Assembly (NCBI RefSeq): GCF_004010195.1
Contig: NC_057718.1
Coordinates: forward strand, 79,260,496 to 79,316,430
From: Chiloscyllium plagiosum
Taxonomy: Eukaryota
Length of the DNA stretch: 55,935 nt
Direction: 5' to 3'
Shown here: piece by piece, positions 1-55,935 of the stretch
Position numbering within the stretch: the first letter of the stretch is position 1
How the letters are laid out: the number at the start of each line of letters is the position of its first letter
The notes under the pieces: generated by a model
Seen by the model: the letters and a program-made list of their open reading frames with translations, nothing else
Databases searched by the model: none
What the model was told of the DNA's origin: nothing
Program-made: the position numbers and the translations under genes

Positions 1-140
1 CCGGAGCACCCGGAGGAAACCCACGCAGACACGGGGAGAATGTGCAAACTCCACACAGTCAGTCGCCTGAGGCGGGAATTGAATCCGGGTCTCTGGCACT
101 GTGAGGCAGCAGTGCTAACCACTGTGCCACCGTGCCGCCC
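1..140 (-). mobile_element. tRNA-derived V-SINE (HE1-like shark SINE), 5' part; continues beyond the window start
   Basis: Minus strand reads GGGCGGCACGGTGGCACAGTGGTTAGCACTGCTGCCTCACAG...GGATTCAATTCCC (Pol III A/B boxes), then the V-domain TGTGTGGAGTTTGCACATTCTCCCCGTGTCTGCGTGGGTTTCCTCCGGGTGCTCCGG. Other copies occur in the window. Confidence 0.9.
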
Positions 141-142
141 AG

Positions 143-198
143 GTCGAACCTCCTAGTGGTTCCCCCCCGGTAACGGCCTGTAAGAGGAAGCTTTTGAC
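143..198 (+). ncRNA. HDV-like ribozyme core of the R2 5' end (P1 5' strand not present in the window)
   Basis: P2 GTCGA(143-147)/TTGAC(194-198); P3 ACC(148-150)/GGT(158-160) around loop TCCTAGT; pyrimidine P1 3' strand TCCCCCCC; GG(169-170) for P1.1; P4 CCT-GTAAG-AGG; candidate catalytic C191. Matches the R2 ribozyme pattern ACCTCCTCGTGGT..CCC..GGTA. Confidence 0.7.
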
Positions 199-663
199 AG
201 GGAGGCAATTTTAAATTGTCTAGGGGTTGTTTTAGTCTGGTTTTATCAGTGGTTTTACCATCGATTTTATCCTTGGTTTTACCGGTACTCTACGCCACTG
301 GCAGTTTTATTGTTTCTCCCTGTCTTTTGAGCAGTACTCTGACCAGGCCGGCGAATACGACCTCAGAAAAGATACGAGACAGCTGGTGACCATTCGGTCT
401 ATATTAGAAACAAAATTTGGCAGCGGCGATTATGGCCAATACCAAAAATTCCAGTTGGGTGGGAGACCGGGTAAATAACCACCCCGCATGGTTGCTATTG
501 GCAGCATCATGCGCAAAATGTGTAGACCAAAAATGGACTGGACAATCCGTCTCGATGCAGACAGAAGAGACTAAGGATTATTCCGGCAAGGCTGTCCTCG
601 GGCAGGCACGAGGAAGCCATTAATATCGTCCAGAATGATCAGGACGCAAGTCGAAGAGAATGA

Positions 664-3600
664 CTAGTAGAGAAGGCCCCTCTGCAGTCGAGTTCATTTA
701 ACAGCCGGACAATTTTTAATTCGAATTTTAACGGGCCATTTGATTTTAGTCGATGTGGAGAATCAGAGAGAGGCGAGGAGAGGTATGAAGGTAGAATTAT
801 CCACCCAATAATTAGGGAAACCGATAAAATAGAGGTAATAATTAAATACCCGGTAGTTAATTTTAATTGTAATTATTGTAATAAGATTTATAACACTACG
901 GGCAGGTTTAGGCAGCATTTAAAGATATGTAAGGGAATTAAATCAGTTAGTTAGAGTTAGATGTAGTAAATGTGAGTGGGAAGGGAATTACCAAGCCGTA
1001 GCACGCCACTATCCTAAATGTTCTAAGAATGAGAATAATGGTAATAGTAATAGTGATAATACTAATACTAATACTACTAATAAGGAAGGAGAGTTAGAGA
1101 AACGATACCAATGTGAATTATGTCCTTTAAAATTTAAGACAACCAGAGGATTGGGGCAACATGAAAGACATGCTCATCCCATTTTAAGAAATGAGAAGAG
1201 GAAGAGAGGAACGGTAGAGAGTAGGAATAAGATGGAAAATAAGGAGGGTACTAAGAGGGGAATATGGTCTCATGAAGAGGTGGAAATGTTGCAACGACTA
1301 GAAGTAGAATTTAGTGGCTGTAAAAATATTAATAAAGTTATAGCTGAGAAATTAGGTACTAAAACGGCAAAACAAATCTCAGATAAAAGGAGGTTATTAA
1401 ATAAGCAAGGTAAAAGTCACGATAACGGTAAAGGTATAGATCAAGAACTGGTTCTTAATGAGTGATAGTGATGAAATGGATAATAGTGATCAGGAGATAA
1501 ATAGGGAAGTAGAGGAAGAAAGATTAAATGGAAAGAGAGATCAAGATAGTAGTATTATTATGGATAGAGTAGACTATAAGAGCAAGTCACTAACAGAATT
1601 AATTAAAATAGTAGAGGATGATATGGGAAGGAATAAAGGTATTAGTCAGGAATTTGAGAATATAATGGATATGATAATGGATAAATTGGGAACGAGTAAG
1701 GAGGGTGATAAAGGTAAGAAGGAGACTCATAGTAAACGAATAGGTTTGAAGCAAAGGGATAGTGGACTAAGAATGAAGAGGAAGGAAAATAAGGCTAAGA
1801 GAAGGTATAGTAGAAAGAAAGGTAAATTTAAAGAAATTCAGGTCTTATATAAAACGAAGAGGCAATACCTGGCAGGAACCCTAATGGGGGCTCCAGTTAG
1901 ATGTGAATGCCCCCTAAGTAAAGAAGATTTAGAAGACTACAATAAAGAAAGATTAACTAACTCTAATGATAAAAATAATTTGAGAGGTTTTGCCAAATAT
2001 AAAAGGCAAGGGGAGGGATCGGTGAATAGGACTCTGACAGGTCCTGTGACAGTAGAGGACGTTAAGGCGATGGACGTAAAAACTGCTGCAGGGCCAGATA
2101 GGGTAACACTGAAGGAGATAGTGAAGATATTTAATAAAGATAATACAGTACTTCCTAGAATATATACCCGATTTCATCCAAATAGTATAATACCGGATCA
2201 AATGAAAATAAGTAGAACTGTATTGATTCCCAAAGTGAGCGATGAAGACGGGTTGAAGGATATTAATAATTGGAGGCCAATAACTATAGGGCCAATTATG
2301 CTCAGAATATTTACTAAAATTATCGCCAGTAGACTAAGTAAAGTAGTAAATCGGAATAAAAGACAAAAGGGCTTTATGGCTGGTGTAGCAGGTTGCGAGG
2401 AAAATATCAAAATTCTGGAAAATATTATTAATGGGGATAAAACGAAAAAGAGATTTAGCGGTAGTTATCGTGGATTTAGCAAAAGCGTTTGACACAGTGG
2501 GCCACAAATTAATTATAATAGCTCTTAAAAGACTCCAACTTCCGTCAATATTTATTAATTTGGTTACAAATTTATATGATAATAATTTTACTCAAGTGGA
2601 AGGTTTTAAAAGTAAAACTGGAAAGATTAAAATTTTAAGAGTGGTTAAGCAAGGTGATGCATTGTCGCCGATTCTTTTTAATATTGTAATAGACCCTCTG
2701 ATAAGTACCATCGAAGAGAAGGAGAAAGGAATATTTTTAGGGATAGATAGGAATAGCTATCACTGCGTAACATTAGCGTTCGCAGACGACATAGCGTTAG
2801 TTAGCCAACCGTATGATAGTATGGTATATAATCTTAAACTTGTAGAAAAATTTTGTAAAAATACGGGAATGGAGGTTAATATGAAGAAAACGAAAGGATT
2901 TTACTTTACATATAAAAATAAGACATTTATATATAATGATAAAATTAACTGGAAGTTAAATGAAGGGAGCTTATAGTTTATAGAGCCAGGTAGTACGGAT
3001 AAATACTTCGGTGCCAAGATAGATCCGTGGATTGGCGTAGGCCAATCAAACTGGGAAAGCCAATTAGATATATGGTTAGGAAATTTAAAAAGATCCCCCT
3101 TAAAACCAGTTCAAAAAAGTAGAAATGTTAAAAACATATTTTATTCCTAGACTATATTATTACTTAGTTTTATCTGAAGTCTCTATTAATTATCTTAATA
3201 AATTAGATAATAAAATAAAAAGTGTAGTTAAAGAAATTTTACACCTCCCGCAATCCATCACGGATGGAGTATTATATGCCGTGATGGTGGCCTTGCTTTA
3301 AATAGACTGTCAACCTTTATTCCAATCTCAATAATGAGGAAGTACGGGATGCTACAGAAATCGGAGGACGAAATTTTGCATGCATCATTTCGTTTCGAAG
3401 GTGATAGTGTGGCTGCAAAAATGTATAAATTATGTAAACTTAGTGATGGAAAACATCTGGAACCCAAATATTAATCGGCGATTAGGTGAAGAGGATACTA
3501 TCAGGGAAGGCAGTGAAGATGAGATGGAAGAGTTTGGCAGTACCAACTATGCTAACTGGAGAAGTATTGAGATACAGAGATGGATGGCCCTCCCCTGTCA

Positions 3601-4277
3601 AGGAGCTGGGGTTCATTATTATAAGAATGATAGTCAACCATCCATTGGATATACTAAGTTACAATATATGAAGACATCTAAAGTTATCAATTCAATTTTA
3701 TTGAAAACAAATTTATATCCAACAAGAGTGTCAATGTCGTATGGAAGGCCATGTAATATCAAGAATTGCAGAAGGTGTAATGATACATCAGAAACGTCTG
3801 CGCATATCTCAGGGTGGTGCCCTTATGTTAAAAACATGAGCATCAAGAGGCATAATAGAGTTGCAGAAGAATTAGTTAAGTATGTAAGGAAGAATGGGTG
3901 GACAGTATATATAGAACTGAGAATTAAAGACGAAGCCGGGAAACTTTGGATACCGGATCTAACTTTTAAGAGAGAACACCAGGTTGTTGTTGTGGATGTA
4001 ACTGTTAGAACAGACCTTCAGATCAACTCGCTTGAATCAGCATGGGAAGAAAAGACAAACAAGTATAAACATCTAGGAAAAGAGATAATGGACCTCATTG
4101 GCAGAGGAACGATATCCTTTTATGGTTTTGTGATAAGAGCCAGAGGGAAGTGGTTCGAAAAGAACACAGAGTTGATGAAAGACCTCGGGTTCTCGAAATT
4201 TAAATCTTTTGCAGAGTATCACAACCCTTGTTTTGTCTTTGACCCTTGAACTTTTACGGATTTTTATGGACTCTTAA
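664..4277 (+). pseudogene. Disrupted R2 ORF (ZF-Myb-RT-CCHC-RLE polyprotein); true start uncertain
   Basis: Pieced together from ORF-track segments 1151-1465, 1458-2492, 2431-2976 and 3380-4249 plus hand translation. Frameshifts near 950, 1460, 2440, 3118, 3278, 3480 and 4220; in-frame TAG at 2974-2976; R2-like C-terminus LELLRIFMDS* ends at 4277. Confidence 0.85.
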
Positions 4278-4670
4278 TTTCTCCTATTGACGTTATTTAA
4301 TAATGTTTTAATAAGTTTTAGGTATTTTAATAGTTTTAATTAATGATTTTAATAGATTTTAATGGTTTTAATAATAAAACTATAGTGTTTTAGATCACTT
4401 AGTTAAAAAGGTGGTGGGTAGATAGGGGTGTTAAAAATTAAAGAGCACGCTTCACACAACAAATGATGAGCAGTCGCCTAGTCTAACAATTGATAAGCCC
4501 AGCTCATCCCTTGCCTCGCTGAGATTATGATTCACAATGTATTTTACCGTTCCCTTAAGATCATTCCGGCTGTGGTTTCGCTGGATAGGGGTATCCATGC
4601 GTCGACAAGCGACGTTAAGATCTCGAAAAGGACATGATCCATCGCGTATGGCGAGTGCATAAAGTTAGCC

Positions 4671-5440
4671 AAATATGCCACCTAGTTCTAAACTCACCCA
4701 GGCTAGTTGAAAGACCTTTGCTATTTACCTTATCTATGCCCTTCATGATTTATAAACCTCCAAGATCACCGCTCAACCTCCTACACGCCAGAGAAAAAAG
4801 TCCTAGCCCATCCAGCCTCTCTTGATAACTCAAGCCCTCTACACCCAACAAGTTTCTCTTTTCTGAACACTCTACAATTTAATATTATCCTTCCTATAGC
4901 TGGGTGACCAGAACTGTATACAGTGCTTCAAAAAGCAGCCTCAACATCCTGTACAACCTCAACATGACATCCCAACTCCTATACTCAAAAATCTGAGCAA
5001 TGAAGACAAGCTTTCCTTCTTAACCACCCGGTCTACCTGTGATGGAACTTTCCCAAAAAAAAACTAGTGTATTTCTCTATTCAACAACACTACCAGAGCT
5101 CTACCATTAACTGTTTAAGCGCTACTCTTATTTGCCCTACTAAAATGGAAAACCTCACATTTAATCGGAATTAAACTCCATCTGCCACTCTGCAGCCCAC
5201 TAGCCTAGCTGATCCCATTGTTATCTTAAATAACCTTCATGTTGACTAGATCACCAATTTGTGTAATCTACAATCATATTAAAAATGCCTTCTAAATTCT
5301 CAACCAAATCATTTTAGAATACTGAACAGTGGACCCAGCACCAATTCCCGCAGAACACCATTGGTCATAGGCCTCCAGTCTGAAAAACAACCCTTTGCTA
5401 CCACCCTTTATCTCCTAGCATCAAGACAATTTTGTATCCA
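4671..5440 (-). mobile_element. CR1/HER1-type LINE fragment abutting the R2 3' end
   Basis: TATGCCACCTAGTTCT...GACCAGAACTG...CCTGTACAACCTCAACATGAC...TAAACTCCATCTGCCAC is colinear with the CR1 copies at 15.8-16.6 kb and 51.2-52.0 kb. Confidence 0.8.
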
Positions 5441-5757
5441 ATCACCACTTGCCTTCCCACCTATTTTTGTCATCTGCAAACATGGTTATAGCGCATTCAA
5501 TTTCCTCATCCAAATCCCCAATCGTAATACTCTAACTCTCAATTGCCCTGAGGAATTAGATACAGGCAATAAATGTTGGTATATCCTGCATCACCCACAT
5601 TCCATGAACAAATACATTAAAAAAAGTCAAGATTAGGTCAGTTGTAATAATTTTTTTTTTTAAAAAGTACACAACATTGAAAGGAGATTAATGATTTGGA
5701 AGGATCAATTTCATGATGTATGTGTAAAGAATTCCACCAATTAATAACAAGACTTAC

Positions 5758-5927
5758 CCCCAAAACACCAAATCTTTCACAGAAGTCCCATCCACAAAGG
5801 AAATCAATCTCATAGTTATGATTGAGAATAACTATGGCATTCTCTTTACCGTACTTAATATAATTCCTTTGGTCAGTATAGAGGGTACATTCTGTACCTG
5901 ACCACCATTCCAGCAACCACACCAATT
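5758..5927 (-). CDS. AGPAT4: 1-acylglycerol-3-phosphate O-acyltransferase 4 (LPAAT delta), second coding exon (170 bp)
   Basis: Encodes (Q)LVWLLEWWSGTECTLYTDQRNYIKYGKENAIVILNHNYEIDFLCGWDFCERFGVLG with the acyltransferase NHxxxxD motif. Acceptor ttctttaaatttcAG, donor GGG|GTAAGT. Phase matches the upstream exon (C|AA = Gln). Confidence 0.92.
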
Positions 5928-5955
5928 CTGAAATTTAAAGAAAAACAAAAAAAAT

Positions 5956-6132
5956 TAGTTATGCCACCAACATCTTGTCCACTACCACCAAAAAGATAAC
6001 AGACATGGGTAAATGGTTTTATTGGGCTATGGCATACCATCGGTATTCAAAGTTTCCATTCGCCTAACCTCTAGTTTGGAAGGTCAACAGATGGGTTACA
6101 TGGGCAGATTTGGCAATAGACAAATCAAGTCT
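5956..6132. repeat. Local direct repeat, copy A (partner 8531-8715)
   Basis: TAGTTATGCCACCAACATCTTG...GGCAATAGACAAATCAAGTCT occurs twice with scattered substitutions. Confidence 0.9.
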
Positions 6133-6949
6133 GGAGATGGGGCTGAAAATTACAATAGATAGAGGGCTGTAAGTTTCCATACAAGTTAAAAAACACAATC
6201 CAATTTCTAATGGCCATAAGCTCAAATCAAACGACTTGGAACTGATTAGAAATTTCATTTAGAGGCTACAAAATAACCTATATGAAACAGTGTCACACTG
6301 ATCCTGCAAGACGTAGTCCTCAGTTTTGGCTAAGGCACGTTGCTGAGAAGGGCATGAGTCTGCTGCTTAACCCAAATAGGTATTGCTGGGTTTTTTTTAG
6401 TAAACAAAAAGGAAGAAATTCCTCCAAATCCCACTACATTGGTAAATGAGTGTAATGCATTAAAATTTAACTTAATTGAATGGATTAATTACACATGCAG
6501 ATAGAAAGAAACTATAACCTTTAAAATTGGAAAACTATCCAAGAGCCTTAAATCAAAAAAGTTTAATACCAAACCAGAAGACACATTAGAATAGCGAGTA
6601 TAGGCTTAAAGTGGATACATATTTTAAAAAGGGTGTGTTTTAAAATAAATCCTTTCAATGGAAAGTTGCACAGAACCAAAACAAAGGTGCTATAATTGGA
6701 TAGAAAAGGAACAAGGTAACAAAGCAAATCATGATCCTCATATTTTAACTGATGCAGCTTAAAAGGCCTCAGGCTGAGTAAGTAGACAGGAGGAGATGCT
6801 ACATTTCAGGGACATGAGACCCAGGAGGCCATCAGAAGAATATTTCTATTAAAAAAAGGAATAGAAATAAAATGGCCACAATGGTAAACTCCCAGTTTGG
6901 TGTCTCTAGGACTTGATAGCAGTGCCAGATATTTCTGATCAACCTGCTT

Positions 6950-7050
6950 TAAAAAGTGTCATTACACACCTCTAGAGCAGGTGGAATTTGAATGTAGGCC
7001 TCCTGGTTCAGAGGTATGAACACTACACTACACTACACTACACCACAACA
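6950..7050 (-). mobile_element. Short tRNA-derived SINE head, degraded
   Basis: Minus strand TTGTGGTGTAGTG...CCTCTGAACCAGGAGGCC..TTCAAATTCCACCTG resembles A/B-box SINE heads. Confidence 0.45.
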
Positions 7051-7190
7051 ACCCTTCTTGGCAACAGTAGCAAAAGGTGCTGAATAACTGACCAGCTGCA
7101 TACGATTAATGAACACAGGTAATCAAAGTTAATAAACAAATCATTAAAACAATTGCTTATATCCACCATACCATTTACATTTCTTAGTAC

Positions 7191-7779
7191 TGTAACAATA
7201 CTGTCACTATAAAGGTTATTTTGTCCTGGAGTCTTAAAGAGAGGTTACAAAGGTAGAGTTGCCAAGGTGGCTAGGGAACCAGCCTTAAACTGTTGCTTTT
7301 TTTAAAAAAAAAATTGTTTAGTAATGGAAGGGGAATGGCCAATTCTCCCAATTCAGGTTCCAGTACTTAAGCTGTAGCAGTCACAAGATGGGAGTGTACC
7401 AGAAGGGTTGTAAGCTTCAGTAAATGATTCCTAACTGACTTTCTTTGAAATCTCTCTGGATGTTGTTTCCTCCTGCCTGTAAGAATCATTGTTTGAATTT
7501 CCCTTTTTGAAAGTGGTGTTTACTATATTGGAACAGTTAATTAGTAATAGTCACTGTATCAGGTCAATTAAGTTTTCCAATAGTCAAGTTATTCTAAATT
7601 CTACTTTTTATTAGTGTTTCAAACATATTATTTAAATAAATTCTGTTTTGCTTAAACTGGTTTGACCAGTTGCATCATACCTGGAACACCCCCTTCTCAT
7701 CTACCTTGAAGAAGGAGAGAGTTAGTGTCTAGGCTACCATCTTAAAATATTTGGAGGGGGTCTGGCCTGGTCCATAACA
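7191..7779 (+). mobile_element. Solo LTR (TG...CA termini, 4-bp TSD GTAC)
   Basis: Starts TGTAACA, ends ATAACA, GTAC on both sides (7187-7190, 7780-7783), internal AATAAA near 7635. A related copy lies at about 40.93-41.39 kb. Confidence 0.8.
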
Positions 7780-8450
7780 GTACAATCCAACCTCACTCAA
7801 GTACTTATCAACATCTGGGCCTAAATGTTCAGCAGTCAAGACTTCAACTCACCCCACATCTTCCATGTTCACATCCCTCACTGCCTCAGACAGCAGATAG
7901 TCATCCATGGTGAGCACATCTGACCTGAACAATGCAACACCACTGATATTCTATCATCTATTTTTCAGGACAAGGTTGTCCACAGCAGAAGTGAGCAATG
8001 CCAAACTAGCAGATAAGCTTTTGTCCCAAACCTGTTGAAGAATATGGTGCTATGCATCATGGAGATGGACTCAACATCGTAACACCAGATGGTAGGGCTT
8101 AGAGCATTCAAAGATAACAGTACATTACTAACACTATGAATCAACTCCCACTTCAATCTCATACTGTATGAGATGTGCAAGTTCCTGATGGTATGTTTTA
8201 GGTATCTCTTGCTTGTCAACCCAGTCATCATTTTTGATTTTCTTTCAGAAACCCAATAATTTGCACGTGTCCAGCCACAGCAGTCTTCTTAGGAAGACTA
8301 CAAAACCTCAATATACCTCAAAAGAAACAAAGACACTTGATCTCACACTTTCAACAACCAGCTCAGATTCTTGCACTATGTAAACAAACTTTGAAAACTG
8401 ATAATGGCTATATAGTCCATGTTCTGTTTCATAGCCAGTGGACGGAGGGG

Positions 8451-8478
8451 AACAAACAAACAAACAAACCAAACAAAC
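8451..8478. repeat. (AAAC)n microsatellite
   Basis: aacaaacaaacaaacaaaccaaacaaac. Confidence 0.8.
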
Positions 8479-8530
8479 ACTCAGGATCTAACCTGTAAAA
8501 CACTTCACAACTTAACGTTTCAATCACATA

Positions 8531-8715
8531 TAGTTATGCCACCAACATCTTGCCCACTACCACCGAAATTTAAAAGATAACCGACATGGGTAAATGGTTT
8601 TTATTGGGCAATGGCACACCGTCACTATTGCAAAGTTTCCATTTGCCTAACTTCTAGTTTAGAAGGTCAACAGATGGGTTACATGGGCAGATTTGGCAAT
8701 AGACAAATCAAGTCT
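8531..8715. repeat. Local direct repeat, copy A' (partner 5956-6132)
   Basis: Near-identical to 5956-6132. Confidence 0.9.
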
Positions 8716-9024
8716 TCATCTAAATTCCAGAGAGCATAGGTTCAATTTATTCAGCCCATCACTGGACAACATTCTGAATCCATGAACTAAACTATATCTA
8801 GTGAACCTTTACTGATTATCTCAAAGGCAATTAATTCCTTGTTTGAAATGGTCTCACTAACACCTACACAACTGTAGCAAGACTTCTTTATTGTTGTACT
8901 CTTCTGGCAATAATGAACAACATGCCATTTGCCTTTGAATTGCAAACTATACCTGCATACTAGTTGAGTTCCTTGCCTATGTACAACATAAATAAAATTT
9001 TCATCACCCCCACCACTCCCCAAA

Positions 9025-13993: not shown

Positions 13994-14190
13994 GACCCTC
14001 CAAAGTGACCCACCCAGACCCATTTCCTTCTAACTAATGCACCTAACACTATGAGCAATTTAGCATAGCCATTTCACCTGACCTGCACAACTTTAGATTG
14101 TGGGAGGAAACCGGAGCACGCGGAAGAAACCCACACAGACACGGAGAGAATGTGCAAACTCCACACATACAGTCGCCAGAGGCTAGAATC
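13994..14190 (-). mobile_element. V-SINE (HE1-like), partial
   Basis: Same V-domain and body as 1-140 and 10573-10827. Confidence 0.85.
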
Positions 14191-16771: not shown

Positions 16772-16869
16772 AGAGCGAGGGGCGGGCGAGGGGGGCCGAG
16801 AGCGAGGGGGGCCGAGAGCGAGGGGGGCCGAGAGCGAGGGGGGCCGAGAGCGAGGGGGGCCGAGAGCGA
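16772..16869. repeat. GC-rich minisatellite, 16-bp unit GAGAGCGAGGGGGGCC
   Basis: Four perfect units plus partial or degenerate units, read directly. Confidence 0.9.
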
Positions 16870-24139: not shown

Positions 24140-24835
24140 ACCTTGGACTGCATGTTCATAGTTCTTTGAAAGTGGAGTCACAGGTAGATAGGATAGTGAA
24201 GGCAGCATTTGGTATGCTTTCCTTTATTGGTCAGAGCATCAAGTATGGAGTTGGAAGGTCATGTTGCAGCTGTACAGGACATTGTTTAGGCCACTTTTGG
24301 CATATTGTGTGAAATTCTGGTCTCTCGCTTATCGGAAGGATGTTGTGAAACTTGAAAGGGTTCAGAAAAGATTTACAAGGATGATGTTGTCAAGGTTGGA
24401 GGATTTGAGCTAGAGGGAGAGGCTGAATAGGCTATTTTCCCTGGAGTGTCAGAGGCTTAGGGGTGACCTCAGATTTATAGAATCATGAGGGGCATGGATA
24501 GGGAAATATAAAAGGTCTTTTCCTGGAGGTGGGAGAGTCCAGAACTAGAGGGCAGAGTTTTAGGGTGAGAGAGAAAAGATTTAAAAAGGGATCTAAAGGG
24601 GCAACTTTTTCAAGCAGAGGGTGGTGCGTGTATGGAATGAACTGACAGAGGAAGTGGAGGAAGCTGATACCCATCCAAATGCCTTTTTGAATGTTGTAAT
24701 TGTATGTGAATAGGAAGGATTTTGAGGGATATGGGTGAAGTGCTGGCAAATGGGACTAGATTAGGTTAGGATATCTGGTCGGCATGGATGAGTTGGACCA
24801 AAGGGTCTGTTTCTGCGCTATACATCTATGACTCT
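24140..24835 (+). mobile_element. CR1/HER1-type LINE 3' end with an internal micro-inversion
   Basis: Colinear with 42845-43547; ends CTATGACTCT. Confidence 0.9.
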
Positions 24836-27411
24836 CAACCAAACATTCCAAATCTGACTTAGTGCATATGCTAGCAATTGACTGATATCCCTCTAAACCC
24901 TTCCTATTCATATACCCATCCAACTGCCTTTTATATGCTGTAAATGTACCCACTTCCAGCTTCTAGTTCCATATGCTGGCTTTGTCCTTTACCCATTTGC
25001 AAAACACTACCAATTCCATGAGCCCTCATCTCATGCAAGAAACTTGTGAGACAGCTTTATGGTCACATGTACTTAAATGAAGACAGTTAAAAGTTAATAA
25101 CTCACCACTTATGGCACCATCTTACCTACAGATTCTTAGGGAAAGAAAATAAAAAAGACCAGCATTACAGATCAAAAGGAATAAAATTAGAATAAAAACA
25201 AAAAAACAAAAAACAAAAATTCGGTCTCTAGTCCAGATTACAAAGTAAATATGGCTGTCTGGTCTGTTATCACATTGCATCACTATATTTGGGCTTGCAA
25301 CAATCTTTGTGCACCTGATTTCATTTTGGGGCATATTTTCTGATGTCAGTTTCCACTTTGGACAGTAACTTTCTGAATACCTTCTGAAAATAAGACTAAG
25401 AATCACATCCATTAGTTTCCTTTGTTATGCTTAATCTTCAAAACTTTTAATCATTCTTCAAATATTGTTTCCATTCAATAAAACTCAACATTATCCAAAT
25501 CATATTATGGTTTGTGAAGTACTGTATCCCATCTATTAAATGGCAGATTTTAAGCATTGCCTGACGTTTGGGGTTGGGGCAAACTAACCCATTTTTTAAA
25601 CTCAGTCCATTTAAAACCTTTGGTTCTTGTGGATTGAAACAGCAACCTCAAAATGTAGGGAATTCTGGAGGATCAACACCAAATATACACTAGTATAATG
25701 TCTGTAGAAAAGAATTAAACAGCCAATTTTAGAAATTTATTAATAAATCCAACTGGCAGTTGAGAAGAAACTGCTTTACCCACAAAGTGGAATGTGAAAC
25801 ACTGTCACAAAAGTAGTATTTAGCATGGATGCAATGGAAGAGGAAAGCCTGGCAAACATACTGGAGGAAGGAACAATTTTAAAAAAAAAGTAGTTTGGCA
25901 TACTTAGATTAAAAATCAATGGAAAGAGGTTTGCTTGCATGAAGCAAAAACCAGACTCATGCTGCTAAAACAAACAGGCCACTCCTATACCTTAAGTGCT
26001 AAATAATACAACGTAATAATTCAAACTACTTCAAAAATGTTCAAGAGTTGCTGGGACTTGCTGGCCCAGTGTGGCAATCTCATCCAGTCTAAGTGTCTTG
26101 TATTCCACCTTGGGAGTTTTGGTGTCCTGTTGCGACGGCCTCTGCTCTGTAATCTTTGGCAGCTGCTTCCCAGTATTCCAGCGATCACTTAGTCAAATTT
26201 TCCCCAAACTGAAATTGATCGGAGATGAACTTCATCTTAATTTTCACCTTTTTCTTTTTTACCTAGGACTTCTGTGATTAATATAGTTGCCCATGATACA
26301 GCGACTTACCAAATTTTTCTTTGTAAAGATACACATGACAATAAAATGCTGTTCTATTCTTAGAATGCAAGTCTAGGATTGCCACTTAGTTTTTTTTAAA
26401 AAAACGTCTTCATACTGACATTACCTATTAATTGGCATATTCTGGATCAAGATAGTCATAATAAAAAGGAGGAAGTGATGGTAAAAAGAACCATTGTGTG
26501 TGCAGCAATTATAGACCAGAAGTAGAGATTGAGTGTAGTATTGCACATTTGACCGGTTGCTTTAAAATGTTTGTGTTTTGCTAGCTGACTACATTATATA
26601 TTTGTATTACAGTGAAACTAAAATTTAAAAAAAGTTAGAGGAACCAAGTGATACAATTAGCTTCACCTCCAAATTGGGATCAGATTAATTCTCAAAGCCG
26701 GCTCGTTGCCACAAATCAGTGGCATTAGCTACTCAAAAACTGGGAATCTTGTTTGGAGAAGCACAAAAACTTCTATGGTGTAAAATGCAAAAAGAAGTGG
26801 TGCAGTTGCTTTATCCTTCTGTCTTTAGTATTAAAGATATATTGTTTGTATAGAGGGATGGCAACAGACTCAAGTGTGCCAAGTGTTTTTCTTCTGTGCT
26901 GTAAAAATGCCTCCACCCAAATCCTTGGCTCCCTCTCACCATTACCCTATTCGGAAAAAAGGTCTTTCTAACCATACTACTTCTAAATCTATAGTAATTT
27001 GTTACATGTATTTATGAAAATGTGCGCAAGTCACCATATTTAATCCAGCACCAGTTTTATTTACTTGAATTTTTTTTAAAAATGCAAAGTTAATTTTATT
27101 TTTATTCCAACCACAGCTTCTTGATTTCATAAATGGTTGCCTTACTCTACAGCTGTCAAAACTGTCCGTGAGACCTCAATAGCTTGCCTATATATTCCTG
27201 ACTCAGGAGCCTACCTTAATTCAAGTTTAAATACCCTTCTTCAGGAATTCAGAATATGACTGCAATATTCCACAAGACAGCATGTAATTACTCTGTAGGC
27301 AACTTTTCACTATCTTTTGTAGTGATAAGTATTAAGAGGCTATCACATATACATATCCCATTTTTTAAATAAAACATCTAGACCAGAATAACTTAGCAAC
27401 TTGTATGACTT

Positions 27412-28061
27412 CAAAGTTTGTGCGAAGATTTGTAGCTTGGGTGCTCGTTGTTGTGGTTCTGTTCGCCGAGCTGGAAGTTTTTGTTGCAAACGTTTCATCC
27501 CCTGGCTAGGCGACATCAGTGCTTGGGAGCCTCCTGCGAAGCGCTTCTTTGATGTTTCCTCCGGTGTTTATAGTGGTCTGTCCCTGCCGCTTCCGGTTGT
27601 CAGTTTCAGCTGTCCGCTGTAGTGGTTGGTATATTGGGTCCAGGTCGATGTGTTTGTTGATGGAGTTTGTGGATGAATGCCATGCCTCTAGGAATTCCCT
27701 GGCTGTTCTCTGTCTGGCTTGCCCTATGACACACACGCAGACAACAAGCAACATGAATTCGACTGGGACAACACTACTATCATAGGGCAAGCCAGACAGA
27801 GAACAGCCAGGGAATTCCTAGAGGCATGGCATTCATCCACAAACTCCATCAACAAACACATCGACCTGGACCCAATATACCAACCACTACAGCGGACAGC
27901 TGAAACTGACAACCGGAAGCGGCAGGGACAGACCACTATAAACACCGGAGGAAACATCAAAGAAGCGCTTCGCAGGAGGCTCCCAAGCATTGATGATGTC
28001 GCCTGGCCAGGGGACGAAACGTTTGCAACAAAAACTTCCAGCTCGGCGAACAGAACCACAA
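27412..28061. mobile_element. Penelope-like insertion forming an inverted repeat, 15-bp TSD
   Basis: Arms about 27448-27728 and 27779-28065 are near-perfect reverse complements. Encodes a GIY-YIG C-terminus HEFDWDNTTIIGQARQRTAREFLEAWHS..INKHIDLDPIY. CAACTTGTATGACTT at 27397-27411 and 28062-28076. Confidence 0.9.
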
Positions 28062-28279
28062 CAACTTGTATGACTTGTCTGTAGCAAAAAGAAATACCTC
28101 ACTAGAAAAAAAATTACAGCACTCAAAGTAACATGTCCTTTGAATAAGTGAGAAGGCACAATCTTTGAATAGTTTTGCCATTTCTTAAGTTTTCCCACTA
28201 ACTCACCACTCATCCAGAAGAGACAGTAATCACATCACTAGACTAGCAATCTGATTCCCAGTTCAAAATTCAAGGGGAA

Positions 28280-36955: not shown

Positions 36956-38444
36956 TGGGACAGCATTTGTTGACTATCCCTAGATGACATTGATGATGGT
37001 GTTGATCTGCCTTCTCGAATGATGGGTTTAAATTAAATTAGGGAGGGTATTCATGGATTTTCATCCAGCAACACTGCAGGAAAAAAGTGATGTATTTCCA
37101 AATCATGATGCAAGCAACCTGGGAGGAGAATAGCATGTGGTGATGCCAACCTCATCCTTCTAGATGTAGATGTAGTATTTTCTGGGTTTGTAAGGTGCTA
37201 CCTGAGTGCATCTTCTAGATTGTGTACACTACTGTTTCTGAACAATAATGGTGGTGGGTGCAGATGTGGTGTTAGCCAAATGGGCTGCTTTAACCTGGGA
37301 GGTGTCAAATTAGTGTTGTTGGAGCTGCACTCAAGTACATAGGGAGTATTCCATCACATTCATGAATTGCATCTTGTAGATATTGGATAGGCTTTGGTGA
37401 GTCAAGATGGGGAATTCACTTGCTGCAAGATTTCTAGCCTTTGACCTTCTCTTGGAGCCACAATACTGACATGGTCAGTCCAGTTTCTGGTTAATAGTAA
37501 TGCCCAAAGATGTTGATAGTAGGGGATTTAAATGGCAATGCCATTGCATGCCAAAAGCCTTCTTCTTTTATTGGAGATAATAGTTGACTGGCACTCAAGA
37601 AGCATTTGTGCCAGGTAACCAGAAGTGAAAGCTCAAACCTGGATATTATCTAGGTCTTGCTGCATTTGTACATGGACGATTTCAGCATAGGAGTCACCAA
37701 TGTGCTGAACATTGTTCAGAGACTGCACAAATATTCCCACTTCTGACCTTATGATGGAGAGAAGGTCATTGATGAACCTGAAGATTGTTATACCTATGAC
37801 ACTACTGAAGAAAAACTGCGGTATCCAGGAGCTGAGAACATTGTTGTAGTTATTGTTGCCAATCTTCCTTTGTGCCAGCTACCCACCGCTGCCCCCCCCC
37901 CCCCACCCCCAAACCAATTCCCAGTGACTTGGGTTTTCCTAAGACTCCGACATTATGAGTAGTCACTCTCACTTTACCTCTGGAATTCATAGAACTCAAC
38001 TCTTTTGTACATGTTTAAAATCAAGACCATAATGAACTAAGGTCAGGAGATAAGTTGCTTTAGTGGAATCAAGCTGAGCCTCAGCAGGCAGGCTATCACG
38101 GAGGAAGACTGGAGAACAGATTGATGGGGCAGTAACTGGTCAGGTGGGATTCATCCTGCTTCTTGTATAGAGGTTATACTGGAGTGGGTAGGTGCCAGCA
38201 GTGTAGCTGCACTTGAACAGGTTGACTAGGGGCACAGCAAGCTCTGGAGCCTCAAGTCTTCAATATTATTTTTAGAATGTTGTCATGGACCATAGCCTTT
38301 GCAGTACCAGATGCCTTCAGAAGTTTCTTGATACTACAGAGTGAATCAGATTGGCTGAAAACTTAAATCTAGGTTGAGGACCTTTGGGAGGAGGCAGAGT
38401 CAAAAATCAGCCGCTGAAAATTGTGGCCAATGCTTCAGCTTTAT

Positions 38445-39129
38445 TTGGTTTTGAGAAGACTTGTAGCTCAGGTTCAGGTTCTGGATATAGGTTTGGCTTG
38501 CTGTGCTGGAAGGCTCGTCTACAGATGTTTTGTCACCACACTAGGTAACTTATTCGGTGAGCCTCTGAATGAAACACTGATGGTGTAGCCTGCTTTCTAT
38601 GTTTGAGTTTCCTAGGGTTGGTGATGTCATTTCCTGTGGTGACATTATTTCATCTGGTGATGTCATTTCTTGTTCTTTTTCTCAGGGGGTGGTAAATGTG
38701 ATCCAAGTCAAATGTGTCTGTTGAGAGAGATCTGGTTGGAATGCCATGTTTCTAGGAATTATCCTGTTTGTTGTTTTCCTCCTCTTTAGTGAATGGTTTT
38801 TCTCAGTATCCTTACTTATGGATGAGGAAGAACACCACTTCAACTGGGACAACACATCCATCCTAGAACAAGCCAACAGAGACAAGCACGAGAATTCCTA
38901 GAATCATAGCATTCCAACCGGACTTCTATCCATAAACATGGACTTGGATCCCATTTACTACCCGCTGAGAAAAAGAATAGGAAATGACATCACCTACCCT
39001 AGGAAACTCAAATATATACAAAGTGGGCTACACCACCAGTGCTTCAGAGGCTCACTGAAAATGTTACCTAATATGGGGACAAAATGTCTGAAAACAAACC
39101 TTCTAGCTCAGCATGCAAACTTACATCCA
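38445..39129. mobile_element. Older Penelope-like inverted insertion, 13-bp TSD
   Basis: Minus arm about 38445-38775, plus arm about 38815-39129 (HHFNWDNTSIL, DLDPIYYPL). GCTTCAGCTTTAT at 38432-38444 and 39130-39142. Confidence 0.8.
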
Positions 39130-40929
39130 GCTTCAGCTTTATCTTTTGCATAGATGTGCTAGGCTCCCTCCTTAACGAGGACAGGGATATTTATGGAACC
39201 ACCTTTTCCAGCGAGTTAATTTTTCTTCATTTGACTGGATGTGACATCGAAGCTCTGAAATAATTCATTCAACCTGTAGGCTGTGGAACCATTTAGCTGT
39301 GTCTATCACTTGGTGATAATGTGGTTGGACAGGCAAATAGTCCAATGTTGTAGTTTCACCAGACTGCCACCTCATTTTAGGTATGTCTGGCATTATACCA
39401 GATATGTACTCTTCATTGAGCTAGACAACTATGAATTAATTCCTTCTGATCTAAAGAACTCCTCCAATTTCTGACTTTCACATTGTATTTTCCACTTATG
39501 CTAACTTTTTTTTCATTACAGTAACAGGTCTACCTAACCTGTTTGCAATTCCCCTTCTAAATTTTGGCTCAGCCATGGGTTCAGCTCGCAAAACTTTTGC
39601 CTGAGGCAAAGCATTGTAGGTTGAGGTCCAACTCTTACACTGGAGTACAAAAGGCTATAGCCAACACCTCTAGTACAGTACCAGGGAAGCAATGGTACAT
39701 CTATTAGAGTTTCCTTTGGATGAGGTGTTAAATTGAGGTTCTTCCCCCCGCCCCCCCCCAACTTTTCACTCAGGTGCATGTAAACAATCCTATCACTCTT
39801 GAGTGGGAGAGTTATCCCATCATCTTCACCAATAGTTACCCTCAGCCAACAGCCGCAAAAAAAGTTCCGATCACCACAATGTTGTTTTGATACAGAAAAT
39901 GCAAGTCAATTGTACACATTACAAAAAATAATTCAAAATTATATCATTGCCCATAAACTGTTAAAGTTATCCAGTGGAGATGAAAAGATGCTACATAAAA
40001 GGAAGTCTTTTTACCCCCTCCATCTTCTCCCTAACATTTGTGTACAAATGGTCTTCCTGTATTATGACATTCATTTATTTAGTACCTGATCCTGTGTATC
40101 TCATTTCTCTACTCCTCAGAGTAAGAACACTTTGCTTCCCATCTCTCTTCATTCAAAAAAAAAACTTAATATTTCAAAAAAAAAATTTACTTGTATAAGT
40201 TTGAGTAAATTTATAGTATATATAAACTTTATAAATCAATACTACATTTCAGTATAATGCTGGGGGATTAAAAAAAAGGAAATTTTTGTTCCTGCAAACC
40301 CGTGTACTACTACTCCCACTCCAATCTGGCCACAGAATACCAAATCCATGGTGGGAAATTTAGATGGGCTGATTGATTTCCATTTCCTCCCCATAACTAA
40401 TATACCACTGAGTCTTCATTATTACACTCACCTGAATCCTTTTCCTCAGTATCAAAACTCAGATCATGTTTTTTTTTAAAACAGTGACACACCTTTCCAA
40501 GTTAGCTGCTTTCTCCACAAAAGTGCAGCTAATGCCACTACACTGCCAAAGCCCTGCATTTCTATCCTCACTAAGTTTCATTTGTTTTTGTCTGCCATGA
40601 AGGACAGCTGTTGATCTGACCTTCAACTATCTCCTAAATTCCATTTTATATGAACATGCGTGGTTGGCAACAATTACACCTTAAAACATGTCTCCCTAAT
40701 CTATACTGCATCACTTTTTTTCATTCCAAGAACTCTCATGCACAGCTTCTCTATTTCCAAAAGTCTAAACACTCATCATTCTGTTGTTCTACCAATGCAG
40801 TATTCTTATTGGATCTATAAAACACTTACTTACACACTGGAATTTGTGACGATGCTGTCACTTAAGTTTATTTTGTCTTTGCCTTTACACCACTTGCCCA
40901 AAAAAAAACACAAAAAGGTGGCAAAGTGA

Positions 40930-41390: not shown

Positions 41391-42039
41391 TAATTTGTAA
41401 ACAAACTCTTGGTATTATCATAGCTGCAGTAGTTGACATAAATCAGTGAGTAAGTGAAAAGTATTGAACCTTTCAAATATTTGTTTTAAAAAAAAACCAA
41501 ACTCTATTTTTGTTTTAAATCTTTGGGTCTCCATGTTAAGCTCTCCACCAAACTCAGTGCCTCCAACTGTGCAACAGCATGTAAAGTCAAGAAAATTAAA
41601 CAACTTAACCTTTTTATTAGCAAGTTTATGAAGGGTTGATAAGTGTATAAAATGGCAGAAACACCAGCAACCAGAGGACACCAACCTAAAGTAAACTTAG
41701 CAAGAAATGAGGGGGGAAATGAAAGGAGATTTTAAGAAAAAAAGAATGCAGTATTTGAAAGATTGTGGAAACAGATTTATTGGGAAATTGTATTCATACA
41801 CGAAGAATAAAATGCAGGGCTTTAGAGAAAACAGCAGGAAGTGAGTATAATAGGGGAGCTCTTTCAAAGCTATATTTATCCACTTAAATTAATCTCCTTA
41901 ATGCTGTTGTAAATCACCCAACCACACCCCCTCAAAAAAAATTCTGCTCCTGAAGCAATCATACAAAACCTCCTTTCAACGTAGACATGAATCTTATTCC
42001 CCTATCACAGTAACAAATGTTAGTCATTTTTGAGATACT

Positions 42040-43547
42040 AAAGTAACTCTGTGGGAAGCTAGAGAAGCGATTGCTGGGCGTCTTGCTGAGATATTTGTAT
42101 CATCGATAGTCGAAGACTGGATGCTGGCTAACATGGTGCTACTGTTTAAGAAGGGTGGTAAGGACAAGCCAGGGAACTATAGACCAGTGAGCCTGACGTC
42201 GGTGGTGGGCAAGTTGTTGGAGAGAATCTCGAGGGACAGGTTGTACATGTATTGGCAAAGGCAAGGACTGATTAGGGATAGTCAACATAACTTTGTGTAT
42301 GGGAAACCATGTGTCACAAACTTGATTGAGTTTTTTGAAGTAGTAACAAAGAAGATTGATGAGGGCAGAGCAGTAGATGTGATCTATATGGACTTCAGTA
42401 AGGCATTCAACAATGTTCCCCATGGGAGACCGGTTAGCAAGGTTAGATCTCTCAGAATACAGGGAGAACTAGCCATTTGGATACAGAACTGGCTCAAAAG
42501 GTAGAAGACAGGATGGTGGTGGAGGGTTGTTTTTCAGACTGGAGGCCTGTGACTAGTGGAGTGCCACAAGGGTCAGTACTGGGTCCTCTACTTTTTGTCA
42601 TTTACATAAATGATTTGAATGAGAGCATAAGAGGTACAGTTAGTAAGTTTGCAGATGACACCAAAATTGGGAGGTGTAGTGAACAGCAAAGGAGGTTACC
42701 TCAGATTACAACAGGATCTTGACCAGATGGGCCAATGGGCTAAGAAGTGGCAGATGGAGTTTAAATTCAGATAAATGCGAGGTGCTGCATTTTTGGGAAA
42801 GCAAATCCTAGCAGGACTTATACACTTAATGGTAAAGTCCTAAGGACCTTGGAGTGCAGGTTCATGGCTCCTTGCAAGTGGAGTCGCAGGTAGATAGGAT
42901 AGTGAAAGTGGCGTTTGGTATGCTTTCCTTTACTGGTCAGAGTATTGAGTACAGGAGTTAGGGGGTCATGTTACGGCTGTACAGGACATTGGTTAGGCCA
43001 CCGTTGGCCTATTGCGTGCAATTCTGGTCTCCTTCCTATCGGAAAGATGTTGTGAAACTTGAGGGTTGAGAAAAGATTTACAAGGACGTTGCCAGAGTTG
43101 GAGGATTTGAGCTATAGGGAGAGGCTGAACAGGCTGGGGCTGTTTTGCCTGGAGCGTCAGAGGCTGAGCGGTGACCTTATAGAGGGTTTACAAAATTGTG
43201 AGGGGCATGGATCGGGTAAATAGACAAACTCTTTTCCCTGGGGTCAGGGAGGCCAGAACTAGAGGGCATAGGTTTAGGGTGAGAGGGGAAAGATATAACA
43301 GAGACCTAAGGGGCAACTTTTACACACAGTAGGGTGGTAAGTGTATGGATTGAACTGCCAGAGGAAGTGGTGGATGCTGGTACAATTGCAACATTTAAGG
43401 AGGCATTTGGATGGGTATATGAATAGGAAGGGTTTGAAAGGATGTGGACCGGGTGCTGGCAGGTGGGACTGGATTGGGATGGGATATCTAGTCGGCATGT
43501 ACGGGTTGGACCGAAGGGTCTGCTTCCATGCTGTACATCTCTATGAC
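42040..43547 (+). mobile_element. 5'-truncated CR1/HER1-type LINE with RT domain (frameshifted)
   Basis: [57 protein letters not shown]; ends CTCTATGAC. Confidence 0.95.
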
Positions 43548-44291: not shown

Positions 44292-45375
44292 AAATAAGTG
44301 AGGACTGCAGATGCTAGAGATTAGAGTCATGAGTGTATTGCTGAAAGGCTTAGCAGGTAAGGCAGCATTCAAGGAGCAGGAGATTTGACATTTTGGGCTT
44401 GAGCCCTTCATCAGGAATGAGGTTGTGGGCCAGGGGGCTGAGAATGCAATAGGTAAATGAAGGTGGAGGAGAACGAAGGTGATACACCGGAGAGGAGGGT
44501 TGAGCAGATAAATGGTAAAGAAGATAGACTGGTCAAGAGGGCAGTGCTGAGTTGGAGGCTTGGGACTAGGATACAAAAAAAAAGATGGTTTGGTGGGGTG
44601 GGGGTGCAAAACAGAGGAAACTGGTTAAATTTTCATTAATGCCATGTGATTGCAGAGTCCCAAGGCTGGGGACGAGGCATTCTTCCTCCAGGCATCAGCT
44701 GATTAGGGTTTGGTAAATGAGGAGGCCTGGACCTGCATGTTCTTGGCGAAGTGGGAGAGGAAGTTAAAGTGTTAAAGTAGTCAGGTCAGTCACTGGTGGG
44801 TGCAGGTGTCCAGAGATGTGCTCCGAAACAATCCAAGATAGGATGCCAACTTGCAGATAATTTCAGAGAACATCTCTAGAACACCCATACCAACCAACCC
44901 CACTGTCCAGTGGCTGAATACTTCAACTCCCCCTCCTAATCCACCATAGGACATGCAGGTCCCGGACCTCCTCCATCGCCAAACCCTAATAACCGGACGC
45001 CTTGAGGAAGAATGCCTCATCTTCCGCCTTGGCACTCTGCAACCACACAGGATGAACGCGGATTTCACCAGTTTCCTCATTTTCTCCTTCTCCCACCTTC
45101 TCCTAGTCCCAAGCCTCCAACGCAGCACTGCCCTCTTGACCTGTCCATCATCTTTCCCATCTATCAGTTTCTCGCTGACCTATCAATTTCTCCCCCACCT
45201 TCATTTACCTATTGCATTCTCTGCTACCTTCCCCCCAACCCCTCCAGCTCCACCCATTTACCTCTTAGACCCCCTATACACAAGCCTCATTCCTGAAGGG
45301 CTCATGCCAGAAACGCTGATACTCCTGCTTCCTGACCTGCTGTGCTTTGCCAGCACCACATTCTCAACACTGAAG
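44292..45375. mobile_element. Penelope-like inverted insertion (family of 10140-11762)
   Basis: Minus arm about 44292-44830, plus arm about 44855-45375 (RLEEECLIFRLGTLQPHRMNADF, GIY-YIG C-terminus). Possible degenerate TSD GAAGACAGACAA/GAAGGCAGTCAA. Confidence 0.8.
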
Positions 45376-48790: not shown

Positions 48791-51159
48791 AGGTTCTGAC
48801 AGTTAACTACTTTGCTTTGACTGGTTCAGCATTTTGCTGATTTATTTTTGAAAGGTCAGTGACCTGAAACATTACCACAATTTTCTCCCCAAACTCCATA
48901 GATGCTGCCAGATCTGTAGTTATTTTGTGTACCATTTTCCTCCTCAACAGTTGCTTTGAATGCTCATTTTCCACCTTCCCCCTCTAGGCTATAGATGCCG
49001 GAACATTATGAGTTTTATGCCAGTGCTGTCTTCGCGATACTGCACATATCAGGTTTCCAACTGTTCAGGAGCTTCTGTTGATTCCTCCACCCTCTGGCCA
49101 AGTAGGTTGTGGCCAGTTGTGGAGTGACTGCCAGCAAATTATACAACCATGCCACTACCAACCCTAAGGATTGATATACAAGCATGACTTTTGGACATTC
49201 AAAAAAAAAACGTTCACAGCCTGGCAGCTGTCAAGTTTTTTTAAACTACCTCAATGGAGGAGGGGGAAGAGGGACACAGGTCTCTAATACCTTCAGCTCC
49301 AAGACTAAAATTTCAAACAGCTGAAAGCAAAACTAAAAACCTTGGGTCTGGTAAAGCCTGATTTCTACCCCCTTCTTTTTTGTCTCATTTTGTAAAAAAA
49401 AAACTATTTACTCTGCTTTCCATGGAACATGATTTGGGAGGTGCCAGTGTTGGACTGGTGTGTAGAAAGTTAAAAATCACAATACCAGGTTATAGTCTAA
49501 CAGGTTTATTTGGAAGCATGAGCTTTCAGAACAGAGACACTGCACCAGGTTTACAACATCCCTCTTTAAGGAGGAAGAGATCAGAACAAATCCCTCTTGA
49601 AAAGGCACAAATCATCACAATGTGTAAATACTTTCAACCTCGGTGGGTACAAAAGATGGCTAATTGAAGTGCTTATAGAATGTTTTGGGACATGTTTATT
49701 AAATAGTTCTTTCTGGAGATAACCAGAAAGCAGACTATACTAGATGGGATATGAAGCAATCTGTTAAGATTGAAGATCTCTAAATAACTATAATCATATT
49801 TTACATTTAGTTTGGAGGAAGAAGGGAGTGGATCAAAGACTAGAATGGTAATTTTTTTTAAAATAAAAAGGGCAATTATGAAAAAAACTCCAAAGTGAAC
49901 TGGCAAATTAGGTTAATGGTATAAGAAGTCAATAGAAATGCCATGTTAGACATTTTAAAAAGGGGATATTTCAGATAATGTTCCAATGAGAAATAAAAAT
50001 TCCAAGGGTAAGTGGTTAGCTGAAAAAAAAAAGTTAGATAGTATCAAAATAGAAAAAAAAGCATATTATTGCACAAAAACAGGTGGCCAGTCTCACTATT
50101 AAACAATGCAAAAGACTAAGTCAGGGAGGGGAACAACTAGGGTAGAGAAAGCTTGCTGGAAATAATCAACAAGAGTTTCTGTAAATAACAAAAGAAGTGA
50201 ACATTGCTCAGAGAGAAAAGTCTGAGAAAAACGAAAATTGAGATAGCAGATAACGAGAAATGTATTTTATAGTTATCCTCCCTTTCAGGACCAAAGTAAC
50301 TTCCCAGAAATGGAAGGGGGAAGGACCCCAGAAAATTACAACCACTAGGAAAGCAATACTGAATAAATTGTTGGACCAGTTGGTTGTCAAGTCTTTTAGT
50401 TATTATCCATTTTGGCAGAAGAGAAACAGCACATCATCCAAATGGTGTGAAATTACCATGTTGCAGCAGATCTGGTAGAATCTGTGAAACAAACATTTCA
50501 AGTCTAATGATTTCTTTAGAACACAGACAGTTCTGAGGAAGGTCACAAGACCCAAAACATTAACTCAGATTTCTCTTCACAGAAGCTGCTAGACCTACTT
50601 AGCTTTTCCAGCAACTTCCGATTTGGTTTCTGATTTACAGCATCCACAGTTTTTTCGGTTTCTGTTTCACACCACATTGCATCAAATGCTGTCTTGATGG
50701 CTAGGCCATATACCTCCTCCAGTAAGCTCAGTATTTTGTGTTTGGACCAAGGCTATGGAAGTCAGGAGCTAATTCACATTGGCAGAATCCAAATGCAGCA
50801 TGCCAGGTAGGTGCTGCTTTAAGTGTTGTCAATTACCCTTTGTACCAGTTGGACAACTGCTACATTGTCAGGTTGATTCCAGTTTTTCTAGTGCAGCTGC
50901 AAAACTTGCCTTGGGGTGTTAGTATTAAGACTTAAGCTTCATAACTGCCATGACAAAGATATTATAAAGGCCCAAAGGCTTCAACCATTTCTCAACAACA
51001 TGGAGTGAATTTGGCTGGAGACCAGCAGTGATGCTGGGGAACCTTAGAAGGTCAAAGGGGATCATCCACTTGTAACTAGCATCAGCCAAAAATATGAAGT
51101 GCACTACCTGCGTCTTTACACTGATGCGCTGATGGTGATAATTGTGAAACCTCCAGTTA

Positions 51160-54949: not shown

Positions 54950-55935
54950 CAAATGTTTTGCAAGGTTTGTAGCTCAGGTTGAGGTTTAGGGTGTTGGTTT
55001 GCTCGCTGAGCTGTCGGTTTAGTATCCAGACGTTTCATTACTTGGCTAGGTAACATCATCAGTGGCAACCTCCAAGTGAAGCGAAGCTGTTGTCTCCTGC
55101 TTTCCATTTATAGGTTTGTCCTGGATGGGGTTCGTGGTGATGTCATTTCCTGTTTGTTTTCTGAGGGGTTGATAGATGGTATCTATATGTTTGTTTATAG
55201 CGTTGTGGTTGGAGTGCCCGGCCTCTAGGAATTCTGAGATGTCTTTGCTTAGCCTGTCCCAGGATAGATGTGTTGTCCCAGTCAAAATGGTAGTTTTTTT
55301 TTCCTCCGTGTGTAGGGCTACGAGGGAGAGAGGGTAGTGTCTTTTTGTGGCTAGCTGGTGTTAGTGTATCCTGGTGGCTACCTTTCTTCCTGTTTGTCCT
55401 ACGTAGTGTTTGTGGCAGTCCTTGCATGGAATTTTGTAGACGACGTTAGTTTTGTCCATGGTTTGTACTGGGTCTTTTAAGTTTGTTAGTTTGACAGCGT
55501 TGGTGAGTTTGTGCGCTATTAGGATTCAGAGGGGTCTTAGTAGTCTGGCTGTCATTTCTGAAACATCTTTGATGTATGGTAAGGTGGTTAGGGTTTCTGG
55601 CTGTGTTTGGTCTGCTTGTCGTGCTGCAGTGTGAGGTGGCTCGTTGGAATAGTGTTCTATCCCAACGAGCCACCTCACACTGCAGTTTAGATGAACTTCG
55701 GAAAACAGGAGAACCACCTATACAACATATTCAAGAAGAACGGATACTCAAAATACAGTCCGCAGATTCCTCAAGAACAAACCATGACAAGCAGACCAAA
55801 CACAGCTAGAAACCCTAACCACCTTACCATACAAAGATGTTTCAGAAATGACAGCCAGACTAAGACCCCTCGGAATCCTAAGAGCACACAAACTCACCAA
55901 CACTCTCAAACTAACAAACTTAAAAGACCCAGTAC
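54950..55935. mobile_element. Penelope-like inverted insertion running off the window end
   Basis: Minus arm about 54950-55652 (TLPYIKDVSEMTARLLRPL, HFDWDNTSILGQ), plus arm from 55657, hairpin junction. Confidence 0.85.
55026..55065 (-). ncRNA. Minimal type I hammerhead ribozyme motif in the Penelope-like terminal repeat
   Basis: CCA-CTGATGA-T-GTTAC-CTAGCCAA-GTAAT-GAAAC-GTC-TGG: stem I CCA/TGG, intact core, stem II, ACGT palindromic stem III, GUC site. Confidence 0.7.

Follow-up and report, generated by a model that had tools for sequence, protein, structure and literature searches.

A decayed R2 retrotransposon in a bamboo shark adjoins a CR1-like repeat through nine nucleotides of 28S sequence, possibly copied from a read-through tail

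We analysed a window of 55,935 nt from Chiloscyllium plagiosum (the whole stretch of DNA, in whose coordinates all positions are given) and find at its start a decayed lineage-A R2 retrotransposon which is followed by a 9-nt tag identical to the stretch of 28S that follows the R2 nick, and then by an internally broken, antisense CR1-like repeat. The best reading of this arrangement, to which we assign a probability of about one half, is off-target target-primed reverse transcription that started inside a 28S read-through tail of the R2 RNA. The mechanism is plausible, and it is read from one junction, on the 3' side of the element. The features involved are the following.

1–140, minus strand: SINE-like repeat that runs off the window, with paralogs at 14111, 54144, 10753 and 47165 (79–89% identity).
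141–4665, plus strand: decayed lineage-A R2 retrotransposon, recognised by its protein match and by a by-eye match of its UTRs to R2-1_CPl and R2-1_CPu.
149–159, plus strand: putative core motif of an HDV-like R2 ribozyme, agreeing at 10 of 11 nt with CCUCCUCGUGG (motif from PMC5035012).
432–4277, plus strand: broken R2 open reading frame with frameshifts and stops (stop at 4275–4277), covering three zinc fingers, a Myb domain, a reverse transcriptase (RT, with AFADD), a CCHC knuckle and a restriction-like endonuclease.
4278–4665, plus strand: R2 3' UTR, matched by eye to R2-1_CPu up to 4596 and ending in CATAAAG-T just 5' of the tag.
4666–4674, plus strand: 9-nt tag TAGCCAAAT, equal to +1 to +9 of 28S downstream of the R2 nick, its last base being common with the CR1-like fragment.
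4674–5441, minus strand: CR1-like LINE 3' region (blastn and profile), antisense to R2 and without its terminal ~277 nt.

Compared with longer proteins, the C-terminal reading frame has one match among 879 candidates, P0002 of Chiloscyllium punctatum (65% identity), which is identical in sequence to R2-1_CPu as listed in Table S2 of PMC13188248. A tblastn search with P0002 aligns along 432–4216 in six pieces and three frames at 55–68% identity, and a copy split in this way is therefore dead. The RT domain is recognised as RVT_1 (E=2e-25), and the C-terminal part matches the R2 structures 9nl3, 9dou and 9nl2 at E<=1.5e-39. Three N-terminal zinc fingers and a Myb domain can be read from the translations, followed by the RT and then the CCHC knuckle and the restriction-like endonuclease; this set of domains places the element in lineage A. 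The most N-terminal finger (~866–936) ends in HxxxC, as it does in P0002, whereas the classical description of R2A has two CCHH fingers and one CCHC finger. A metagenome scan with P0002 returned four loci at 33–56% identity over short charged stretches, which we rejected as spurious.

At the other end, position 141 corresponds by eye to about nt 91 of R2-1_CPl, which puts the true 5' end of the element and its 5' junction off the window. The 5' half of such a ribozyme would lie off the window as well, and Rfam reports no ribozyme family at the core motif; three sub-threshold Rfam matches obtained at E<=10 were rejected. The 5' terminus of the SINE-like repeat, whose GGG start agrees with the paralog at 54144, adjoins the 5' UTR of R2, and for this reason the repeat probably entered R2 after R2 had been inserted. 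The SINE label for 1–140 is that of the initial annotation and is tentative. Folding of the R2 3' end gave no signal, with z between -0.2 and 0.7 in all four folds.

The copy does not occupy the canonical insertion site in a 28S gene and has nine nucleotides of 28S only. Rfam found no rRNA elsewhere in the window, and a search of the window for the R2 target site with up to three mismatches gave no match. Among its other features, the window holds five fold-back (self-inverted) elements (27447–28065, 38481–39130, 44421–45240, 55465–55935 and 24700–24960; arm identity 67–93%), a 185-nt direct repeat pair that is 90% identical (5956–6132 and 8531–8715), and a GC-rich 16-nt perfect tandem repeat of 5.2 copies at 16786–16869.

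Judged from sequence comparison, the 3' end of R2 probably lies at 4664/4665. The first 400 of the 478 nt of the R2-1_CPu 3' UTR were compared by eye and align up to 4596. The remaining 78 nt stand against 69 nt before the tag in the window, and against exactly 78 nt up to the end of the tag. This difference leaves room for two readings, since the relative may have a longer tail or indels, or the tag may be part of the element. The vertebrate R2 ends that are fully visible read TAAA (R2-1_STig), AAAA (R2-1_CMi), AAAG (PlaMe) and TAAA (R2Tg amplicon); the end found here, CATAAAG, resembles these four, while two mollusc ends do not. Reads of other copies span 4607, 4619 and 4652, with T in 16 of the 17 reads at the last position, and the sequence of the family therefore reaches at least 4652.

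The initial annotation had identified the tag as the first nine nucleotides past the R2 nick in 28S, and this holds: tag and 28S flank (Table S2 of PMC13188248) agree over exactly 9 nt and diverge thereafter. The same annotation allowed for a chance match, and here the outcome depends on the scale. Window-wide the 9-mer is unremarkable, with two matches against 0.79 expected and two or more in 21 of 100 shuffles, yet the chance of finding it within 20 nt placed by reference to the R2 end is 1.5e-4. The weight of the tag comes from its position and not from window-wide rarity; the tag is real and probably not due to chance. Should TAGCC alone need explaining, with AAAT assigned to CR1, the chance within 20 nt becomes 1.4e-2. 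The second match in the window (37273–37282) comprises 10 nt of the 28S downstream flank, in non-R2 DNA with no R2 beside it, and provides a useful control for the tag. In the R2-1_ARu row of the same Table S2, the cell for downstream 28S opens with this 9-mer and then diverges from 28S; what follows looks by eye like open coding sequence of R2 type, and the junction in that row may have been mis-called on a chance 9-mer.

On the other side of the tag, similarity to the CR1-like repeat begins at 4674 by blastn and extends to 5441. A profile built with this copy left out matches 4674–5167 (E=2e-64) and starts at model position 278, the start of the profile being the tail; the break is therefore internal to the CR1-like repeat. 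The missing terminal piece was not found within 1–9000 of the window. The region is 63–72% identical to six paralogs in the window and 53–61% identical to two others, has a read depth of 1e4–1e5, and is oriented by an RT fragment at 42034–42501 upstream of the paralog at 42477–43547. We presume it to be CR1, the label given in the initial annotation; what is observed is a very abundant LINE-type 3' region. In the paralog at 51159, ~50 nt are missing (at 51372) directly ahead of the point that corresponds to the break in the R2-associated copy.

The initial annotation also proposed that the tag overlaps the CR1 sequence by microhomology and that annealing of AAAT(GCC) guided the event, and neither proposal is borne out. 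The ungapped overlap is 1 nt (T4674) and reaches 4 nt only with a gap, and T makes up 26% of paralog bases. The bases before the shared T read AAACC in four of the eight paralogs and AAAAC, ACATG, AAAGC and GTT in the others, CCAAA being found in none, and a sharing of (AAA)T would require a 2-nt gap or an unseen CR1 subfamily. The word ATGCC is common to 28S and the CR1 site, but its likeness is at chance level, as a shared 5-nt word occurs at 24% of paralog positions and 13% of sampled window positions; moreover, pairing through ATGCC predicts a junction 2 nt shorter than the one observed. A primer–template overlap of at least 4 nt beyond chance is not seen, and homology-guided choice of the site would appear to have no support, the overlap being no better than chance.

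None of the eight CR1-like paralogs in the window carries the tag. TAGCC, whose presence before the insertion the initial annotation had left to a comparison with the CR1 consensus and with the empty site in related sharks, is absent from all eight (the comparison covers the window paralogs). Likeness of the paralog sites to an R2 cut site was scored after the site had been seen, in those five of the eight paralogs whose anchor is clear and whose upstream sequence is intact. The nick motif agrees at 5/8 positions in two of the five (background about 3%) and at 4/8 in the remaining three (background 12–15%). The upstream motif at -25..-19 is absent, with agreement at only 1–2 of 7 positions, and T stands at -20 in four of the five paralogs, inside a T-rich tract. 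We regard this likeness to a cut site as a weak hint.

Published elements provide the context for this junction. R2-1_CPu and R2-1_CPl, the bamboo shark elements of Table S2 in PMC13188248, belong to the same family, as the protein identity to P0002 and the matching UTRs indicate, and likewise have three zinc fingers and a Myb domain. They differ in having 28S on both sides, while the window copy is broken, lies outside the rDNA and has 28S as the short tag only. The element is a dead representative of a family that has already been described; to speak of retargeting, as the initial annotation did, is overstated for one dead copy whose nearest published relatives sit in 28S. The type of junction is already known from R1. 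Stage and Eickbush (2009, PMC2718515) describe 118 non-28S insertions of Drosophila R1 whose 3' junctions are intact; many lie in repeated DNA, and some incorporate up to 14 nt of downstream 28S, ascribed to a 28S tail on the template RNA. These insertions resemble the window copy in being an rDNA-specific element in repeated DNA with short downstream 28S; however, R1 belongs to a different clade, and some R1 copies could be compared with their empty sites and read at both junctions, in contrast to the one junction read here.

Natural R2 copies outside 28S are also on record, in five Drosophila species (PMC2718515) and as an R2Bm insertion at a non-28S site that retained both target motifs (Xiong et al. 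1988, as discussed in PMC10499050); the available text of these sources describes no short copied 28S tag for them. R2 is co-transcribed with rRNA, its transcript being expected to run on into 28S, and priming by avian lineage-A proteins depends on such a 3' rRNA tail (PMC11371274, PMC12222951). The PRINT/R2Tg systems of avian R2 described in the same papers share with our case a lineage-A protein, a 28S-tailed template and rare non-rDNA insertion. At their off-targets, however, the target matches 4–5 nt of the tail as well as 19–25 bp upstream, whereas the inferred target here matches 1 nt and has no upstream motif; the match is there supplied by the target itself, and the portions available mention no additional tag. 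Avian R2 remnants (PMC5035012) are, as here, dead vertebrate R2A copies with a scrap of 28S, and the available part of that paper does not analyse the mechanism of the junctions. In the literature covered by our search, which left most subscription papers outside, we found no account of naturally occurring R2 junctions in sharks that carry a short, copied 28S tag.

Based on these observations, we propose the following course of events. R2 RNA would have been released from an rRNA co-transcript with 28S sequence still beyond its 3' end, and the R2 protein would have primed at a nick or break that lay 277 nt from the tail of an old, antisense CR1 remnant. As this target offered no match to the 28S tail from +1 onward, priming would have begun a few bases into that tail, near +9 and with 1 to 4 bases paired. 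In this way 5–8 nt of 28S would have been reverse-transcribed before the R2 3' UTR. The R2 copy would then have decayed and gained the SINE in its 5' UTR.

Several observations argue for priming inside the tail. The tag sits at the probable R2 end, where chance would rarely place it, the AAAG followed by T resembles vertebrate R2 ends, the CR1 paralogs are free of the tag, the nick motif is matched at 5/8 in two of the five paralogs, and both the R1 precedent and the avian need for a 3' rRNA tail make such an event conceivable. Furthermore, the insert comprises nearly the whole R2 and stops 9 nt beyond it, which is more readily expected of an RNA template than of a random piece of DNA. Of the scenario in the initial annotation, the read-through tail and the off-target priming remain the best reading, on the position of the tag, the paralogs and R1, while guidance by AAAT(GCC) is not supported. 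On the other hand, tail priming is weakened by the overlap of 1 nt, as opposed to the pairing of 4–5 nt at engineered off-targets, by the lack of the upstream motif together with the 4/8 nick matches in three of the five paralogs, by the failure to recover the missing CR1 tail in 1–9000 and the off-window position of the 5' junction, and by the remainder of R2-1_CPu, which is 78 nt long in comparison to 69 nt here.

The alternatives differ in where they place the origin of the nine nucleotides. A longer piece of R2 and 28S, either displaced rDNA or a long read-through cDNA joined at a break, may have come to lie beside CR1, and a later deletion may have left 9 nt of the 28S and removed the terminal 277 nt of CR1 at the same time. 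We consider this the main alternative, though less likely than priming inside the tail. A single deletion would account for the shortness of the tag and for the loss of the CR1 tail alike, a 1-nt overlap is what end joining yields by chance, deletions in the CR1 region are known (the paralog at 51159 lacks ~50 nt just before the same position), many decayed R2 copies occur in the sequencing runs, and avian R2 remnants adjoin fragmented 28S or non-rRNA sequence (PMC5035012). Yet a random breakpoint would seldom fall within 9 nt of the R2 end, and the window is free of other rDNA, both by Rfam and by the target-site search. Two readings that begin with CR1 were rejected: a template-switch chimera made by CR1, as the CR1 is antisense and without its tail, and a later CR1 insertion at +9 of the 28S tail, after which the CR1 tail would adjoin the tag. 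The latter needs a further deletion and therefore falls under the deletion just described.

It is improbable that the tag is the family's own 3' terminus, an acquired 28S-like end, which would set the junction at 4674 with no tail copied. The remaining 78 nt of R2-1_CPu do reach exactly 4674 by eye if there are no indels, no large indel falls in 4566–4652 among the 12 of 164 indels listed, and R2 families with 28S-like 3' termini are known (PMC5035012); but the downstream flank of R2-1_CPu opens with the same 9-mer, so that a tandem duplicate would be required, the AAAG that precedes the tag resembles the ends of lineage-A elements, and the published 28S-like ends come from upstream, not downstream, 28S. 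Still less probable is a target, a mutated CR1 copy, which already read TAGCCAAAT and was picked for its 28S likeness, with precise insertion and no tail copied. The initial annotation had raised such a site, and there is precedent in the 4–5 nt of tail matched downstream of the nick at engineered off-targets, in the 4–9 bp of 28S identity at R1 targets (PMC2718515) and in the target motifs kept at the non-28S R2Bm site (PMC10499050). TAGCC is nevertheless found at this position in none of the eight paralogs, such a target would have had to acquire about four changes in 11 nt, and the upstream motif is absent. We give least credence to chance, with AAAT stemming from an unseen CR1 subfamily and TAGCC being untemplated or decayed R2 terminal sequence. 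The value of 1.4e-2 for five nucleotides, the longer chance match at 37273 and the 9-mer within apparent R2 coding sequence in the R2-1_ARu row speak for it; position and register fit a canonical R2 junction, however, and the full 9-mer has a chance of only 1.5e-4.

Finally, the R2 family appears to be multi-copy, with abundant and single-copy members, in organisms B and C as well. Four runs were compared to 141–5000 at 80% likeness, and summed depth is not equal to copy number. In run X1, contigs identical to the window copy have a depth of 21–23, the summed depth over R2 bins is 140–1112, and contigs at a depth of 362–484 differ by 14–17%. Several low-depth R2 members 4–9% from the window copy were observed in runs X1, X5, X9 and X21, from three organisms. 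The 24 loose ends listed, beyond which there are 2230 more, all fall at 4710–4989, in the CR1-like part. We do not read the small word shares of organisms B and C (0.12–0.18) as a sign of an ortholog.

According to PMC12222951, it is not known where R2 RNA naturally ends on its 3' side in host cells. Off-target junctions of natural origin that include copied tags would report the length of the tail and the mispairing tolerated in vivo; a single junction is insufficient for such a readout, but a set of dispersed copies could provide it. It is a speculative extension, which we hold to be doubtful, that tens of dispersed lineage-A R2 copies in the shark lineage were made by priming inside a 28S read-through tail, that the lengths of their tags (9 nt in the present copy) reflect both the natural 3' end and the priming register of R2 RNA in the vertebrate germ line, and that a degenerate nick motif in the abundant CR1 3' region serves as a recurrent secondary target. 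A readout of tail length and mispairing would bear on the off-target behaviour of R2 gene-insertion tools.
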